From contig PJQG01000026.1 of NCBI GenBank assembly GCA_002861595.1, positions 442-64,441 of the forward strand: a stretch of 64,000 bases of DNA, read 5' to 3'. Shown here piece after piece: positions 3,157 through 53,965 of the stretch. Position 1 is the first letter of the stretch, and each line of letters opens with the position of its first letter. The notes under the pieces are model-generated. The model was not told where the DNA came from and did no database searches. It worked only from the letters and a program-made list of their open reading frames with translations. The position numbers were made by a program, and so were the translations under genes. This DNA is from Actinomycetota bacterium (GTDB lineage Bacteria > Actinomycetota > Acidimicrobiia > Acidimicrobiales > GCA-2861595).

Positions 3157-4397
3157 GACGGACCGCGGCGGCCATCGTGGGCTGTGGGCTGGCGCTGGCC
3201 GTCGTCGTCGCCGTCGTCGTCGGCGCCCCCGCCTCCGACGCCGTGCAGCTCATGGGCTTCGCCGCCGGCGGCGCGCTCGCCGCCGGCGCGGCGGGAACGG
3301 CGGCGCTCTCCTCCCTCCGCCACCGCTCGGTGAGGGCCCAGGCCGTGGTCGTCGCCCTCACCTCGGTGGTGGCCGTGGGCCTCGGCGCCACCGCGGCCGC
3401 CGATGCCATGTTCCTGTCGGCGCACGACTATGGCGCCCTGCTCGTCATCCTGGTCACGGCGGGGACGGTGGGCCTGGTCACCGCCCTCGTGCTGGGCGAC
3501 CGCCTGCTGGCCGGGAGCCGCTCGCTGGGAGAGATCGTGCGCCGGATCGGCGACCTGGGCGGCGCTCCGCCGGCGCCGGGCGCACCACCGCCGGCCACCG
3601 AGGAACTGGCCGGGCTGGCCCGACAGCTGGCGGAGATGTCGAACCGCCTGGAGCAGGCCCGGGCCCGGGAGCGCTCGCTCGAGGCCTCCCGGCGAGAGCT
3701 GGTGGCGTGGGTGTCCCACGACCTGCGCACCCCCCTTGCCGGCATCAGGGCCATGGTGGAGGCGCTGGAGGACGGGGTCGTCACCGATGCCGGGACGGTG
3801 GAGCGCTACCACCGCACGATGCGCCTCGAGGTGGACCGGCTGGCCGGTCTGGTGGACGACCTGTTCGAGCTCAGCCGCATCCAGGCCGGCGCCCTGGAGC
3901 TGCACCTCGAGCCGGCCTCGCTGTCCGACCTCATCTCCGATGCCCTGGCCGGCGCATCGGCGGTGGCCGACGCCAAGGGCGTGCACCTGGAGGGGCGCCT
4001 CGACGGTCCTGCGCCCGAGGTGGAGGTGGCCACGCCCGAGGTCCTGCGCGTGCTGCGCAACCTGCTCGACAACGCCATCCGCCACACCCCCGCCGCCGGC
4101 CAGGTGTGCCTGGAGGCCGGAGTGATGGACCACCACGCCGTGGTGTCCGTGCGTGACCGCTGTGGCGGGATCCCCGGCGGCGAGCTCGACCGGGTGTTCG
4201 ACCTCGCCTTCCGGGGCGACGCCGCCCGCACGCCCGAGCACGACGGCGGGGCCGGCCTCGGGCTGGCCATCGCCCGGGGGATCGTCGAGGCCCACCACGG
4301 CGACATCGCCGTGCGCAACGAGGAGGACGGCTGCCGCTTCACCCTCCGCCTGCCCCTGCCGAGCTCGTCGTCGTCGGCGACGGCCTCGCCGGCATGA
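3153..4397 (+). CDS. Sensor histidine kinase, multi-TM N-terminus with no large periplasmic domain
   Basis: H-box WVSHDLRTPL, N-box NLLDNAIRHT, G-box GGAGLGLAIARGIV. ATGA overlap with the RR stop (3153-3156). Confidence 0.9.
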   Translation: MRRTAAAIVGCGLALAVVVAVVVGAPASDAVQLMGFAAGGALAAGAAGTAALSSLRHRSVRAQAVVVALTSVVAVGLGATAAADAMFLSAHDYGALLVILVTAGTVGLVTALVLGDRLLAGSRSLGEIVRRIGDLGGAPPAPGAPPPATEELAGLARQLAEMSNRLEQARARERSLEASRRELVAWVSHDLRTPLAGIRAMVEALEDGVVTDAGTVERYHRTMRLEVDRLAGLVDDLFELSRIQAGALELHLEPASLSDLISDALAGASAVADAKGVHLEGRLDGPAPEVEVATPEVLRVLRNLLDNAIRHTPAAGQVCLEAGVMDHHAVVSVRDRCGGIPGGELDRVFDLAFRGDAARTPEHDGGAGLGLAIARGIVEAHHGDIAVRNEEDGCRFTLRLPLPSSSSSATASPA

Positions 4398-5783: not shown

Positions 5784-6234
5784 GCGAGGACTGTACGTGG
5801 CGGTGGTGGGGCCGGGCGCATGCCCGGCCGGCGTGGAAGCCGAGGCCGAGGCCGTCGGTCGGGCGCTGGCCGAGGCCGGGGTCGTGCTGGTGTGCGGTGG
5901 GCTCGGTGGCGTCATGGAGGCCGCCTGCCGGGGGGCGAAGGCGGCCGGCGGCACCACCGTGGGCATCCTCTCCGGAGACGACCGAGGTGCGGCCAACCCG
6001 TGGGTCGACGTGGCCCTCCCGACCGGCCTCGGCGAGGCCCGCAACGCCCTGGTGGTCCGCAGTGCGGACGCGGTCATCGCCGTGGCCCGCGGCTATGGGA
6101 CCCTGTCGGAGGTCGCTCTGGCGTTGAAGATCGGGAAGCCGGTCGTGGGCCTGGGCACCTGGGACATCGAGGGCGTGGAGGCCGCTGTGGACCCCCAGGA
6201 GGCGGTGGCGAAGGCCGTCGGGTTCGTATCCTGA
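5782..6234 (+). CDS. TIGR00725/LOG-family (Rossmann, lysine-decarboxylase-like) protein
   Basis: MRGLYVAVVGPG...LVCGGLGGVMEAACRGA...GYGTLSEVALAL. Start ATG 5782 shares the CATG with the divergent ArsC-family start. Confidence 0.7.
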   Translation: MRGLYVAVVGPGACPAGVEAEAEAVGRALAEAGVVLVCGGLGGVMEAACRGAKAAGGTTVGILSGDDRGAANPWVDVALPTGLGEARNALVVRSADAVIAVARGYGTLSEVALALKIGKPVVGLGTWDIEGVEAAVDPQEAVAKAVGFVS

Positions 6235-6240
6235 GCCGGC

Positions 6241-6316
6241 GCCCCCGTATCCCAACTGGCCAGAGGACGGGAACTTAAAATTCTCGACAGTGTGGGTTCG
6301 ACTCCCACCGGGGGCA
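6241..6316 (+). tRNA. tRNA with anticodon UAA (nominally Leu) but class-I-like short variable region; no encoded CCA
   Basis: Hand fold: acceptor GCCCCCG/CGGGGGC (7 bp). D arm TCC-CAACTGGCCAGA-GGA. Anticodon stem GGGAA/TTCTC, loop CTTAAAA. Variable GACAGT. T arm GTGGG-TTCGACT-CCCAC. Discriminator A. Confidence 0.6.
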
Positions 6317-6321
6317 CGCCC

Positions 6322-6831
6322 CTACGGGCCGACCTCCAACACGTAGCCGAGCAGGTGGATGCGATCCTCCACCGTGGAATCTCGCTCCGGGGAGCGGCGG
6401 AAGCCGAGGCGCTCGTAGAGGCGGCGGCCGGCCGTCATCCACTCGGTGGTATGGAGCACGAGTCGGGCTCGGCCATCCTGGCGGGCGCGGTCGATGCAGG
6501 CCTGGACGAGGGCGGCGCCCACACCCCGGCCCTGGGAGGCGGGGTCGACACCCAGCATGCGCAGGGCGGCCTCGTCCTCCCTCATCGGCTGAGCGTAGGG
6601 GGAAGCGGCATCGTCCAGGTAGGTGACAGCCCCGAGGATGGCACCAGTGCCGCCGTCGACGGCGACGAGCTGGAGCGTGGATGCCGACCGGCCGGCGACG
6701 TCGGCCAGCTCCTCGGCGTAGGCCCCCTCGAGGCGGAAGCCGGGCAGGGTGCCGTAGGCGGTCAGCATGATCTCGCTCACCCGGTCGTACTCGTGCACCT
6801 CGGCCACCCGGACCTCGATGCTCACGGCCAT
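6322..6831 (-). CDS. GNAT-family N-acetyltransferase
   Basis: 169 aa from ATG (complement 6829-6831). LGVDPASQGRGVGAALV is the acetyl-CoA-binding motif A (Q/R-x-x-G-x-G/A). Confidence 0.8.
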   Translation of the reverse strand: MAVSIEVRVAEVHEYDRVSEIMLTAYGTLPGFRLEGAYAEELADVAGRSASTLQLVAVDGGTGAILGAVTYLDDAASPYAQPMREDEAALRMLGVDPASQGRGVGAALVQACIDRARQDGRARLVLHTTEWMTAGRRLYERLGFRRSPERDSTVEDRIHLLGYVLEVGP

Positions 6832-6838
6832 CGTGTCC

Positions 6839-7519
6839 TCAGGGGTCGATCCACTCCTTGAGGTACGCCTCGCGGCGCTCGGCCCACTCCTCGACGGTGA
6901 TGGCGTAACGGACGTGGTCCTCCCAACGACCATCGATCTGCAGGTAGCGGACCGCGATCCCCTCGTCGCGGAGCCCGAGCTTCGACGCGACCCGCCGGGA
7001 CGCGGTGTTGCGGGGGATGATGGCAACCTGGAGCCGGTGGAGGTCCAACTCCTCGAAGGCAAAACGGAAGGCCACCACGGCCGCCTCCGGCGTGTAGCCG
7101 TTGCCGGCCAGCGCCTCGTCGATCCAGTAGCCGACGTAGGCGTTCTGGAAGGCCCCCCGCTGGATCCCGTTGAGGTTGATCTCGCCGGCAAAACGGTCAT
7201 CGACGAAGATGCCGAACCCGAAGCCGGAGCCGAGCTGACGCTCCCTGTCCCGGGCGCTGCAACGCGCCGCGAAGGCCCGGCGATCCTCGACGGTGTCGGG
7301 GTGGCCGGGCGCCGGTCTCGGCTCCCAGCGCGTGAGCCACCGCCGGCAGCGTCGGCGCACCTCGAGCCACTGCTCGAAGTCGTGCACGGTTAGGCCCCGC
7401 AACATCACCCTCCGGCCGCGCAACTCCAGGGGAAGCGCTCGGATCACGGCAGTGGAGAACGGGCGTCCCGCGGCGCGACCACCGTGGCAGGCTATGTCGC
7501 GCCACGGCGGCGGCGTCAC
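6839..7519 (-). CDS. GNAT acetyltransferase, RimJ/RimL-like
   Basis: LRGLTVHDFEQWLEVR...FGIFVDDRFAGEINL...GYWIDEALAGNGYTPEA...HRLQVAIIPRNTASRRV matches the RimJ-type pattern. Start uncertain. Confidence 0.75.
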   Translation of the reverse strand: MTPPPWRDIACHGGRAAGRPFSTAVIRALPLELRGRRVMLRGLTVHDFEQWLEVRRRCRRWLTRWEPRPAPGHPDTVEDRRAFAARCSARDRERQLGSGFGFGIFVDDRFAGEINLNGIQRGAFQNAYVGYWIDEALAGNGYTPEAAVVAFRFAFEELDLHRLQVAIIPRNTASRRVASKLGLRDEGIAVRYLQIDGRWEDHVRYAITVEEWAERREAYLKEWIDP

Positions 7520-41340: not shown

Positions 41341-42303
41341 CTACGACTGGTTGTCGCCGCCGAAGATCTCCGAGACGGAGGTGTCCTCGAACACGGCGTC
41401 GATGGCGTCGGCGATGATGCCGGCGACCGAGAGGACCTCGATCTTGTCGAGTTGCTTCTCCGGCGGTAGCGGCAAGGTGTCGGTGACCACGATCCTCCCG
41501 ATCACCGAGTTCTTCAACTTGTCGATGGCAGGGTCGGACAGCACCCCGTGGGTGGCCATGGCCCACACCTCGCTTGCGCCGCTCTCCATGAGGATGTCGG
41601 CCGCGGCGACGATCGTGCCGGCGGTGTCGATCATGTCGTCGATGAGGACGCAGTGCCGCCCGCTCACCTCACCCATGACGCCCCGGGCCTGCGCCACGCC
41701 GCGGGCCCGCTTCTTGTAGACGCCCGCAGGGTCGGCGTCGAGGTGCTGGGCGAAGCGCTCGGCCACCTTCATGCGCCCGGCGTCGGGGGCCACGATCATG
41801 GGGTCCTTCGGGCCCGACTTGGCCAGGTAGTCGAGCAGCACCGGGGTTGCGGTGAGGTGATCGACGGGGATGTCGAAGAAACCCTGGATCTGGCCCGAGT
41901 GCAGGTCGACGCTGAGGACCCGGTTGGCGCCGGCCACCATGAGCATGTCCGCCACCAGCTTGGCCGTGATGGGCTCCCGGCCCTCAGCCTTGCGGTCCTG
42001 GCGGGCGTAACCGTAGTAGGGCACCACGGCTGTGACCCGCTTTGCCGAGGCCCGCTTGGCCGCGTCGATCATGATGCACTGCTCCACGATGGAGTCGTTC
42101 ACCGGGTTGGCGTGGGTCTGGACGATGAAGGTGTCGCTACCCCGCACCGACTCGTCGTAGCGGCAATGGATCTCGCCGTTGGCGAACTCCCTGACGTTGG
42201 CGTCCCCCAGACCCACGTCGAGGTGCCGGGCGATGTCGGCGGCCAGGGTGGGGTGGGAGCGGCCGGAGTACAGGACGAGGCGCTTCTTGGGCACCATCTC
42301 CAT
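41341..42303 (-). CDS. prs: Ribose-phosphate pyrophosphokinase
   Basis: 320 aa. YYGYARQDRK, VLIDDMIDTAGT, NSVIGRIVVTDT. Confidence 0.97.
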   Translation of the reverse strand: MEMVPKKRLVLYSGRSHPTLAADIARHLDVGLGDANVREFANGEIHCRYDESVRGSDTFIVQTHANPVNDSIVEQCIMIDAAKRASAKRVTAVVPYYGYARQDRKAEGREPITAKLVADMLMVAGANRVLSVDLHSGQIQGFFDIPVDHLTATPVLLDYLAKSGPKDPMIVAPDAGRMKVAERFAQHLDADPAGVYKKRARGVAQARGVMGEVSGRHCVLIDDMIDTAGTIVAAADILMESGASEVWAMATHGVLSDPAIDKLKNSVIGRIVVTDTLPLPPEKQLDKIEVLSVAGIIADAIDAVFEDTSVSEIFGGDNQS

Positions 42304-42306
42304 TGC

Positions 42307-43413
42307 TCAGGTCCCCTCCTGGTGACCGTCGGCGGCGAAGAACGGGCCGGTGACGGTGCCCGGCGCCACCCGGGAGCCCGGGGCCAGCGCCGCGAACGGC
42401 CCCACGCGAGCGTCGGCGCCGATCTCAGCCTGGCGGGCCACGGTCTGCTCCACCACGGCGCCGTCGCCCACCACGCAGTCGACGAGGCGCGAGTCGGGGC
42501 CGATCTGGGCGCCGGCGCCGACAGTGGTGGACCCCTGGAGGATGGCGCCGGGGAAGAGGGTGACATCGGGCGACAGCCGCACGGTGGCGTCGATGTAGGT
42601 GCGCCGAGGGTCGAGCATCGTCACGCCCCGATGCATCCACCGGTCGTTGGTGCGGTCGCGCAGCTCGGCTTCGGCCACGGCCAGCTGGGCCCGGTCGTTC
42701 ACACCGGCCACCTCCATCGGGTCGTCGACCGCCATGGAGATGACGGCGTAGCCGGCGTCGTGGAGGACCCCCACGACGTCGGTGAGGTAGTACTCGCCCT
42801 GCGCGTTCTCGGGGCTCAGGCGGCGCAGGGCCGGGGCCAGCACGCTGCGGCGGAAGCAGTAGATCGAGGTGTTGACCTCGTCGATAGCCAGCTCTTCGGC
42901 GGTGGCGTCGGCCTGCTCCACGATCCTCGCCACGTTGTCCCGCTTGTCCCGCACGACGCGCCCGTAGCCGCCGGCGTCCGCGACCCTCGTCGTGAGCACC
43001 GAAGCCGCGGCCTCGGCCTCGCGGTGGCTGCTCACCAGGCGGTCGAGGGTCGGCGAGCGCACCAGGGGGGTGTCGCCGGGCAGCACGACGATGTCGGCGT
43101 CGTCGGCGTCGTCGTCGGGAAAGGCGGTGAGGCCGACGGAGACCGCGTCCCCGGTGCCTCGCTGCACGTGCTGCTCGACGAAATCGATGATGAGGTTCGC
43201 AGGAGCGCTCTCCAGCAGGGCTTTGGTGACCCGCTCGGCGCCGTGGCCCACCACGACGACCACCCGGTCGACGTCGAGCTCGGCCAGGGCGTCGATGACG
43301 TGGAGCACCATCGGGCGCCCGCACAGCAGGTGCAGCGGCTTGGGCCGCTCCGACTTCATGCGCGTCCCCTCGCCCGCCGCCAGAACCACTGCGGACAACG
43401 GGCGCCGGCTCAT
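42307..43413 (-). CDS. glmU: GlmU-like uridylyltransferase with a short left-handed beta-helix (C-terminal acetyltransferase part apparently missing)
   Basis: AVVLAAGEGTRMKS...KPLHLLCG, QRGTGDAV, YYLTDVV. The LbH ends at VGPFAALAPGS...GPFFAADGHQEGT*, about 90-100 aa short of E. coli/B. subtilis GlmU as I recall them. Confidence 0.8.
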   Translation of the reverse strand: MSRRPLSAVVLAAGEGTRMKSERPKPLHLLCGRPMVLHVIDALAELDVDRVVVVVGHGAERVTKALLESAPANLIIDFVEQHVQRGTGDAVSVGLTAFPDDDADDADIVVLPGDTPLVRSPTLDRLVSSHREAEAAASVLTTRVADAGGYGRVVRDKRDNVARIVEQADATAEELAIDEVNTSIYCFRRSVLAPALRRLSPENAQGEYYLTDVVGVLHDAGYAVISMAVDDPMEVAGVNDRAQLAVAEAELRDRTNDRWMHRGVTMLDPRRTYIDATVRLSPDVTLFPGAILQGSTTVGAGAQIGPDSRLVDCVVGDGAVVEQTVARQAEIGADARVGPFAALAPGSRVAPGTVTGPFFAADGHQEGT

Positions 43414-43455
43414 GGCTCCTGTCTACCCCAGCGGTGAGGGGTCAAGTGGCGACCG

Positions 43456-43526
43456 CTCGGGGAGAAGGGCTCGAACCTTCATTCCAGGAGCCAAAATCCT
43501 GTGTCCTACCGTTGGACGATCCCCGA
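43456..43526 (-). tRNA. tRNA-Gln (anticodon UUG), CCA not encoded
   Basis: Hand fold of the complement: UCGGGGA-UC-GUCC-AACGGUA-GGAC-A-CAGGA-UUUUGGC-UCCUG-GAAU-GAAGG-UUCGAGC-CCUUC-UCCCCGA-G. U1-A72 and G73 fit Gln identity. Confidence 0.85.
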
Positions 43527-52479: not shown

Positions 52480-53763
52480 CTAGGCGGCCATGCCCACGAT
52501 CCGGCCGCTGATGCCCGTGCCTGCGGTCGACCCGTGGAAGACGGCGTCGCCGAAGCCGAAGATGCCGCCGTCCGAGGCCACCAGCCAGTAGCCGTTGCCC
52601 GAGCGGCTCGCGGCCATGCCCACGATGGGCCGGGCGAGCTTGATGGCGCCGGTCGAGCCGTGGAAGACGGCGTCGCCGAAGCCGAAGATGCCGCCGTCCG
52701 AGGCCACCAGCCAGTAGCCGTTGCCCGAGCGGCTCGCGGCCATGCCGACGATGGGTTGGGCCAGCTTGATGGCGCCGGTCGAGCCGTGGAAGCGGGCGTC
52801 GCCGAAGGCGAAGATGCCGCCGTCCGAGGCGACCAGCCAGTAACCGTTGCCCGAAGGGGTGGCCGCCATGCCGACGATGGGTTGGGCGAGCTTGATGGCG
52901 CCGGTCGAGCCGTGGAAGCGGGCGTCGCCGAAGCCGAAGATCCCGCCGTCCGAGGCCACCAGCCAGTAGCCGTTGCCGGAAGGGGTGGCGGCCATGCCCA
53001 CGATCGCCCGGTTGAGGGAGATGGCGCCGGTCGAGCCGTGGAAGCGGGCGTCGCCGAAGCCGAAGATCCCGCCGTCCGAGGCCACCAGCCAGTAGCCGTC
53101 GCCGGAAGGGGTGGCGGCCATGCCCACGATGGGCCGGGTCAGGGCGAGCCCGCCCGTCGAGCCGTGGAAGCGGGCGTCGCCGAAGCCGAAGAGGCCGCCG
53201 TCGGACGAGGCCATGCGGTACCCCCGGCGGCCGTCGAGGGAGGTCGGCACCGGCGCCGGAGCCGGCGCAGGAGGCGCCAACGTGGCGGACGAGATGGCCC
53301 GGCTGGTCATGAAGTTGACGGTGACGAAGATGGTCGAATCGGGCGCCAGGGCCACGGCGACGCCGACCGAGTCGAAGGCGGGGTCGATCATCTGGCGGTA
53401 GTGGGTGGGGCTGGCCACGAAGGCGTCGTGGATCTCCTGCACCGTCGCGCCCATGCCCACGTTCTCGCCGAGGCGAACCCAGTCCGGCGGGGCCTGGGAA
53501 CGGAGGTTGGGATTGTGGGAGATGTCGTTGGCCCGCACCATCTGCTCGGACCACGACCGGGCCACGGCGACAAGGTCGTTTCGGACGATCAGCTGGCGCA
53601 GGCCCCGCCCCGCCCGCAGCTCATTGAGCTTGGAGACGAACGACGCCTCGCGGGCCGGCTCGGCGGTGGCCGCACGTATGCCCAACGGGGCCGCGATCAC
53701 CAGCGCCAGGGCGGCCAGCGCCAGCGCCAGCGCCAGAGCGAGGCCGCGATACAACTTGCCCAT
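52480..53763 (-). CDS. Secreted CAP/SCP (YkwD-like) domain protein fused to six 41-aa tandem repeats
   Basis: Signal-like LALALALALAALALVIAAPL. CAP motifs (SWSEQM, HNPNL, GENVG, SPTHYRQM). Then 6 x ([42 protein letters not shown]). Confidence 0.85.
   Translation of the reverse strand: MGKLYRGLALALALALAALALVIAAPLGIRAATAEPAREASFVSKLNELRAGRGLRQLIVRNDLVAVARSWSEQMVRANDISHNPNLRSQAPPDWVRLGENVGMGATVQEIHDAFVASPTHYRQMIDPAFDSVGVAVALAPDSTIFVTVNFMTSRAISSATLAPPAPAPAPVPTSLDGRRGYRMASSDGGLFGFGDARFHGSTGGLALTRPIVGMAATPSGDGYWLVASDGGIFGFGDARFHGSTGAISLNRAIVGMAATPSGNGYWLVASDGGIFGFGDARFHGSTGAIKLAQPIVGMAATPSGNGYWLVASDGGIFAFGDARFHGSTGAIKLAQPIVGMAASRSGNGYWLVASDGGIFGFGDAVFHGSTGAIKLARPIVGMAASRSGNGYWLVASDGGIFGFGDAVFHGSTAGTGISGRIVGMAA
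52483..53217 (-). repeat. Six tandem 123-bp coding repeats, adjacent central copies nearly identical at DNA level
   Basis: Read directly. For example, the units beginning gtggaagacggcgtcgccgaagccgaagatgccgcc at ~52534 and ~52657 differ at only a few positions. Confidence 0.9.
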
Positions 53764-53965
53764 GCGATTGCCCTCCAGGTGTAGGTCCCACGGAGGGCGA
53801 GGCCCCCATTCGGTAGCCCGGCGGCCTTGTGAGCGGTTGCTCCGTCAGGCCCGTAGCTTTGCGTCGGCGGGTTTCCCCGCCTTTGCCGTTTCGTGGGTTT
53901 GGCTGTACTTGCCCAGTTCTTCGGCCGGTCGGCGCCTGCTCTTGAGAACCGGCCGAGCGGCGTCG

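Follow-up and report, generated by a model that had tools for sequence, protein, structure and literature searches.

The analysed stretch of 64,000 nucleotides (the window, GC about 71%) carries at positions 6241–6316 of the forward strand a tRNA gene which, judged from its sequence, is very probably a functional chromosomal tRNA-Leu(UAA) of type I, i.e. with a short variable region, and as such an ordinary one for Actinomycetota. The identical sequence is already public in GCA_030155325.1. The tRNA is 100% identical and the gene order is the same in three independent assemblies, GCA_030155325.1 and two Logan assemblies (L001–L003), which shows that the sequence is real; the three represent the same species and therefore add no comparative signal.

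The gene, 76 nt long through A73, fills the 87-bp spacer (6235–6321) between two convergent genes, starting 6 nt after the TGA (6232–6234) of the upstream ORF and ending with A73 5 nt before the stop codon of the downstream GNAT acetyltransferase gene (6322–6324, CTA on the + strand). The acceptor stem GCCCCCG/CGGGGGC (6241–6247 with 6309–6315) consists of seven G-C pairs and is followed by U8 and A9. The D arm, UCCC-AACUGGCCAG-AGGA (6250–6267), was placed with the help of an alignment of family members (A2, see below) and has a stem of 3 bp (U10:A25, C11:G24 and C12:G23) together with a conserved C13.A22 mismatch, while the 10-nt D loop AACTGGCCAG holds A14, A15 and G18G19. After C26 (6268) comes the anticodon arm GGGAA-CTTAAAA-TTCTC (6269–6285) with one G.U pair, where the loop CTTAAAA is found at 6274–6280 and the anticodon TAA, also identified by ARAGORN, at 6276–6278, with U33 and A37. 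The variable region GACAGT (6286–6291) is 6 nt long and its last base, U48, is the Levitt partner of A15 (15:48). The T arm GTGGG-TTCGACT-CCCAC (6292–6308) precedes the last acceptor strand and the discriminator A73 at 6316, and since the next bases are CGC the CCA end is not encoded. The leucine-type core is thereby complete, comprising A73, U8-A14, G18G19 and a D stem of 3 bp in which 13.22 is mismatched. An earlier note on this DNA had described the 76-nt cloverleaf, its GC acceptor stem and T arm, the anticodon UAA, A73, the sequence GACAGT and the gaps of 6 nt and 5 nt to the neighbouring genes, and every one of these details agrees with the sequence.

The tRNA was called by two programs, at a level far above what chance would give. 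ARAGORN called a tRNA-Leu(taa) at 6241–6317, with no second copy in the 64-kb window, and the Rfam model RF00005 gave a full-length match (1–71) of 43.5 bits (E 6e-6), above the gathering score of 29. A profile HMM made from 108 other genomic members of the family, with the window sequence left out, gave 55.1 bits (E 4e-16) at the same position as its sole match within the window; the family's own profile scores range from 49.4 to 78.9 with a median of 69.5, placing the window copy in the low tail. The single-sequence MFE fold of the window tRNA was not a cloverleaf (z = -1.39), a result that carries no information for a tRNA, and covariation was therefore used to support the cloverleaf.

In the alignment A2, comprising 54 sequences, the cloverleaf together with the tertiary pair 15:48 was scored, altogether 21 pairs. 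Paired cells made up 99.6% as compared with 75% in column shuffles and 37–50% with slid partners, and compensatory changes on both sides were present among the 54 members at 16 of the 21 pairs, the tertiary pair 15:48 included. All seven pairs of the acceptor stem covary, with 100% of the cells paired, and so do all five pairs of the anticodon stem. In the D stem covariation was seen for 10:25, which is G:C in 44 and U:A in nine sequences, and for 11:24, and the Levitt pair alternates between A15:U48 and G15:C48 across the family. Positions T8, A9, C13 and A14 are invariant, G18G19 nearly so, and A73 is found in 107 of 109 family members. In the window tRNA none of the 30 invariant columns is altered, and each of its 21 pairs, helical or tertiary, is of a standard kind.

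The leave-one-out profile was also run on 1,160 tRNAs, all those that ARAGORN found in the fetched loci, and the top-scoring groups were without exception leucine tRNAs. Short tRNAs with UAA reached a median of 63 bits and those with CAA a median of 61 bits, with single scores up to 68, while the best short tRNAs with UAG, GAG and CAG scored 60, 50 and 36 bits, respectively. Because only leucine tRNAs score high and no non-leucine tRNA exceeds 31.2 bits, the scaffold is leucine-specific and it is indifferent to which of the leucine anticodons it carries.

When species-representative bacterial genomes were scanned with a family-specific pattern, narrower than the one used for viruses, at least 120 loci were retrieved and ARAGORN identified at least 113 short tRNA-Leu(UAA) genes of 73–79 nt in the genomic loci listed. 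Of the loci listed, 120 in number, about 92 are assigned by their record titles to Actinomycetota, covering nearly all orders, and about 28 to other phyla. Among the matches listed the Mycobacteriales are represented by Nocardia, Corynebacterium, Tsukamurella and Prescottella, and there are also members from Pseudonocardiales, Micrococcales, Actinomycetales, Propionibacteriales, Streptosporangiales, Geodermatophilales, Frankiaceae and Nanopelagicales as well as from Acidimicrobiia, Rubrobacteria, Coriobacteriia and Euzebyaceae. The actinobacterial copies share the loop CUUAAAA, the variable region NCAGU and A73 with the window tRNA, most of them also the acceptor stem GCCCCCG and the T arm GUGGGUUCGAnUCCCAC, at identities of 75–92%. 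Named chromosomal copies are those of Nocardia carnea (L141), Corynebacterium yonathiae (L147), Microbacterium psychrotolerans (L143) and Pseudonocardia endophytica (L197), to which is added an Actinomycetota MAG (L144), the closest genomic relative among the matches listed with 92% identity. The acceptor stem varies in some of the chromosomal copies, being GCCCCCA in L141 and L147, and most of them differ from the window tRNA in having G10:C25, a 5-nt variable loop and a D loop of 8–9 nt. The statement in the earlier note that bacterial tRNA-Leu are class II thus fails in Actinomycetota, as seen both from the about 92 of 120 listed short UAA loci and from published work (PMC6614811, PMC11541572). 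The about 28 non-actinobacterial loci also show the short tRNA-Leu(UAA) scaffold, with different acceptor stems, and may represent native genes, prophage cargo or bin contamination; examples come from Planctomycetota (L152, L172, L185), Cyanobacteria (L173, L195, L237, L243), Rokubacteria (L140) and Binatia (L198, L248).

The same scaffold is common in viruses. A BLAST search against phage genomes revealed tRNA-Leu genes of 74–79 nt built on it, with the anticodons UAA, UAG, GAG and CAA, and a scan of viral contigs for short-loop tRNAs with CUUAAAA gave at least 120 loci, all of those listed carrying a short tRNA-Leu(UAA) with at most 80% identity to the window tRNA. The best match among annotated phage records was the Leu(taa) gene of Sinorhizobium phage Phosso (84%), other examples being Leu(gag) and Leu(caa) of Mycobacterium phage Bonray, Leu(tag) of Gordonia phage Phendrix and many IMG/VR contigs. 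These phage tRNAs are 74–84% identical to the window tRNA and have D arm (GUA-NCCCAAY-GGCAGAGGN), variable loop, T arm and A73 in common with it. Their genes, however, lie in tRNA arrays, differ in the acceptor stem and in many cases include CCA, while the gene in the window stands alone and on a chromosome. A metagenome scan for the CAA version showed at least 118 short tRNA-Leu(CAA) on the window scaffold, with up to 87% identity to the window tRNA among the matches listed. Judged by these comparisons, the short-arm tRNA-Leu(UAA) is a widespread and conserved family in Actinomycetota and their phages.

Some details of these arrays and contigs were observed in passing. The array of Mycobacterium phage Bonray (L010) has a long CAG tRNA beside short GAG and CAA tRNAs, and a metagenome contig (L330) has short CAA, GAG and UAG tRNAs together with an 82-nt UAA tRNA; in both of these and in the array of Gordonia phage Phendrix (L009) short-arm leucine anticodons adjoin one another. 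The presence of several short leucine anticodons per array indicates that the short scaffold has been re-used for most leucine codons. Many soil-derived short tRNA-Leu(CAA) (L253, L285, L286, L302 and other high-GC contigs) read ...acgga-ctcaaaa-cccgt..., which as written places A opposite C at the loop-closing pair 31:39, an opposition that recurs across contigs.

A precedent has been described by Fan et al. 2019, who reported for Streptomyces coelicolor a single tRNA-Leu of type I, with the anticodon CAA, in addition to four of type II, bldA among them, and found both types to be charged by the one LeuRS of this organism (PMC6614811). The variable loop of the type I tRNA is A44-C45-A46-G47-C48, U8-A14 is a shared identity element for the enzyme, and the minimum variable-loop length for good leucylation is 5 nt; human mitochondrial tRNA-Leu(UUR) is not charged by it (PMC6614811). 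Compared through the features stated in that paper, the S. coelicolor tRNA and the window tRNA are alike in the short loop (ACAGC and (G)ACAGU, respectively), U8-A14, G18G19 and A73, and unlike in the anticodon (CAA versus UAA), in the variable region (5 nt versus 6 nt) and in the D loop, which is 10 nt in the window tRNA. Long variable loops are described for tRNA-Leu-2, -3 and -5 of Mycobacterium tuberculosis (PMC11541572), and since these are three out of five tRNA-Leu the remaining two are by implication short. A survey of type I tRNA-Leu covering Actinobacteria or the genus Mycobacterium was looked for in the searchable literature and not found; the only matches were the work of Fan et al., where the S. 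coelicolor gene is treated as a rarity (PMC6614811), and this indirect remark in PMC11541572. Animal mitochondrial tRNA-Leu(UUR) is likewise of type I with the anticodon UAA but has an unrelated, degenerate mitochondrial scaffold.

Within its family the window copy stands somewhat apart, although it is structurally intact. The variable region has 5 nt (NCAGT) in 104 of 109 members and 6 nt in five, the D loop has 10 nt in five of 109, the window copy included, and U10:A25 is found in 13 of 109, mainly from Acidimicrobiia, Propionibacteriales and further Actinomycetota. The extra G of the variable region probably lies opposite C26 (6268), with which it could pair, and the corresponding C26-G pairing is possible in four of the five members with 6 nt, a very small sample. 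The anticodon-stem changes that separate the window copy from L144, its closest relative among the matches listed, keep the pairing (C30-G40 to A-U and G28-C42 to G.U).

That the gene is a decaying copy or pseudogene of a disused tRNA-Leu was one of three options raised by the earlier note. Its score with the general tRNA model, 43.5 bits against 54–66 bits for seven members of the family (six of them from named genera), the additional nucleotides by which D loop and variable region are lengthened, and the lack of TTA among the window codons (see below) could all be read in this way. The 21 of 21 standard pairs and the retention of every family-invariant position argue against it, though, as do the compensatory nature of the differences to L144 and the possible pairing of the extra base with position 26; the 6-nt loop moreover exceeds the 5-nt minimum for leucylation (PMC6614811), and the window holds no other copy of the tRNA. 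We consider decay very unlikely. A second option, altered identity, would have the tRNA charged with something other than leucine, for deliberate mistranslation or for a non-ribosomal role. Altered-identity tRNAs of the tRNA-ProX type combine the identity elements of one amino acid with the anticodon of another and usually have a synthetase paralog nearby. The missing class II arm and the GNAT-fold gene next to the tRNA would fit such an idea, but the scaffold is common to hundreds of tRNAs, all with leucine anticodons (UAA, CAA, UAG, GAG or CAG), its members score far above every non-leucine isotype, A73, U8-A14 and A15-U48 are conserved and a CAA member has been leucylated experimentally (PMC6614811). 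Neither is there an aaRS paralog beside the tRNA, the neighbours being a TIGR00725 gene, ordinary GNATs and ArsC, which leaves altered identity extremely improbable. What stands of the three options is accordingly the non-canonical leucine tRNA, given the intact pairs, the retained invariant positions and the leucine-specific scaffold.

An origin outside the native chromosome, i.e. a tRNA recently brought in by a phage or a genomic island, was weighed in the same manner. Phages are rich in tRNAs of the same scaffold, with at least 120 loci in the viral scan and the examples of Phosso, Bonray and Phendrix, and in Pseudonocardia endophytica (L197) an intact short tRNA-Leu(UAA) and a copy of its 3' half are situated about 3.4 kb apart (3900–3971 and 7358–7432, both on the - strand), a pattern which suggests that this tRNA gene serves integrative elements as attachment site. 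In the window, on the other hand, no integrase or phage genes were found within 6 kb on either side of the tRNA, and a search of the 64 kb for a duplicated 3' half, the signature of an att site, matched only the tRNA gene itself. The acceptor stem and T arm agree with those of chromosomal copies, and the identity is up to 92% with these as against at most 84% with viral tRNAs among the matches listed. The surroundings contain metG, glmU, prs, mfd, eno and pepN, with a canonical tRNA-Gln(UUG) (43455–43526, - strand, 60.6 bits) immediately upstream of glmU (42307–43413) and prs (41341–42303), and by tRNA-Gln-glmU-prs, mfd, eno and metG the window can be recognised as a conserved part of the actinobacterial core chromosome. 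A recent acquisition of this kind has very little probability.

The rarity of UUA, to which the earlier note had pointed, was evident in a census of 48 putative window genes picked by GC3, where about 18,045 codons contain 130 TTG and no TTA. This rarity is what is expected from the GC content. The absence of TTA counts against the preferred reading in so far as it shows no local demand for the tRNA, and it speaks neither for nor against a bldA-like role. Such a role would imply a functional tRNA, deliberately scarce or poorly charged, that forms a bottleneck for a few UUA-containing genes, and it could draw on the extreme rarity of the codon, the unusual lengths of D loop and variable region in the window copy and the precedent of bldA in Streptomyces. 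Both tRNAs have the anticodon UAA and belong to high-GC actinobacteria, which use UUA least of all leucine codons. The bldA tRNA of S. coelicolor is, however, of type II with a variable arm of 17 nt (PMC6614811), unlike the 6-nt variable region of the type I window tRNA, and it has a demonstrated developmental role while no regulatory role is indicated for the latter. According to Chandra & Chater the developmental significance of bldA is probably confined to Streptomycineae (PMC4255298). The rarity of UUA moreover follows from the GC content alone. The bottleneck is improbable and the analogy drawn by the earlier note is weak. We likewise give little chance to the idea that the unusual shape, i.e. 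the C26-G extension of the anticodon stem and the bigger D loop, makes the tRNA a weakly charged or low-abundance UUA decoder and thereby a type I analogue of bldA outside Streptomyces. Short-arm tRNA-Leu with UAA or CAA may also be the norm in Actinomycetota, shared with a large pool of phage tRNAs, and the long-arm bldA the exception.

For the preferred reading, an ordinary functional tRNA-Leu(UAA), a route from gene to decoding can be proposed from the sequence context. The upstream gene (5797–6234, + strand) is of the TIGR00725 family (LOG-like, PF18306; 145 aa in L001) with 114.9 bits against the NCBIfam cutoff of 106.9, and the best homologues of its protein are found in uncultured Actinomycetota and Acidimicrobiales assemblies. 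Downstream lies the convergent GNAT acetyltransferase gene (6322–6831, - strand), recognised by a domain match; genes for an ArsC-family protein and a second GNAT, likewise on the - strand, also flank the tRNA, both GNATs being ordinary with acetyltransferase-family matches. No σ70-like promoter or intrinsic terminator was identified between 5600 and 6900 with a scan tuned to the σ70 consensus. As the tRNA takes up the entire convergent spacer, only 6 nt from the upstream ORF, and the scan gave no promoter-like site, its transcription probably proceeds together with, or from within, the TIGR00725 gene, the likely source of read-through. The 5' end would then be cut by RNase P and the 3' end trimmed, with CCA presumably added enzymatically as it is not encoded. 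The host LeuRS is predicted to charge the tRNA by way of the tertiary core (U8-A14, A15-U48 and the elbow of G18G19 and the T loop) and the acceptor end, so that the variable arm and the anticodon would be dispensable for leucylation, and the charged tRNA would decode UUA, and UUG as well depending on the modification of U34.

A leuS gene was sought in the 64-kb window but is absent; metG, of the ordinary kind and about 42 kb away from the tRNA, is the only aaRS gene present. An 862-aa ORF considered as a leuS candidate was rejected as it encodes aminopeptidase N.

The locus itself matters little: the gene is a standard one and is already labelled tRNA-Leu by annotation pipelines. The designation as an atypical tRNA in the earlier note is right in so far as the tRNA is of leucine type and has no long arm, but the short form is common in the phylum and the word atypical does not apply. 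The textbook rule that bacterial tRNA-Leu belong to class II is in need of correction for Actinomycetota, and with short-arm Leu(UAA) and Leu(CAA) so widespread in this phylum and its phages, future scans should not flag them as anomalies. The breadth of the family (three scans with at least 120 loci each) suggests that a systematic survey is possibly worthwhile, including the co-evolution with LeuRS and the origin of the type II bldA.

The genomic neighbourhood of the tRNA in L144 is unrelated to that of the window and the neighbourhood is thus not conserved. At two loci with distant TIGR00725 homologues, from more distant Actinomycetota (L004, 3428–6453, and L005, 3042–6438), the TIGR00725-family gene is located directly downstream of leuS in a leuS-comEA-comEC-holA neighbourhood, with no tRNA present; that a TIGR00725 gene adjoins leuS there and precedes a tRNA-Leu in the window may be a coincidence. 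Elsewhere in the window a c-di-GMP-I riboswitch aptamer (RF01051, 66.2 bits, E 9e-11) was identified at 53809–53897 on the - strand, directly upstream of a 427-aa ORF (52480–53763, - strand) with a weak match to the YkwD/CAP domain.
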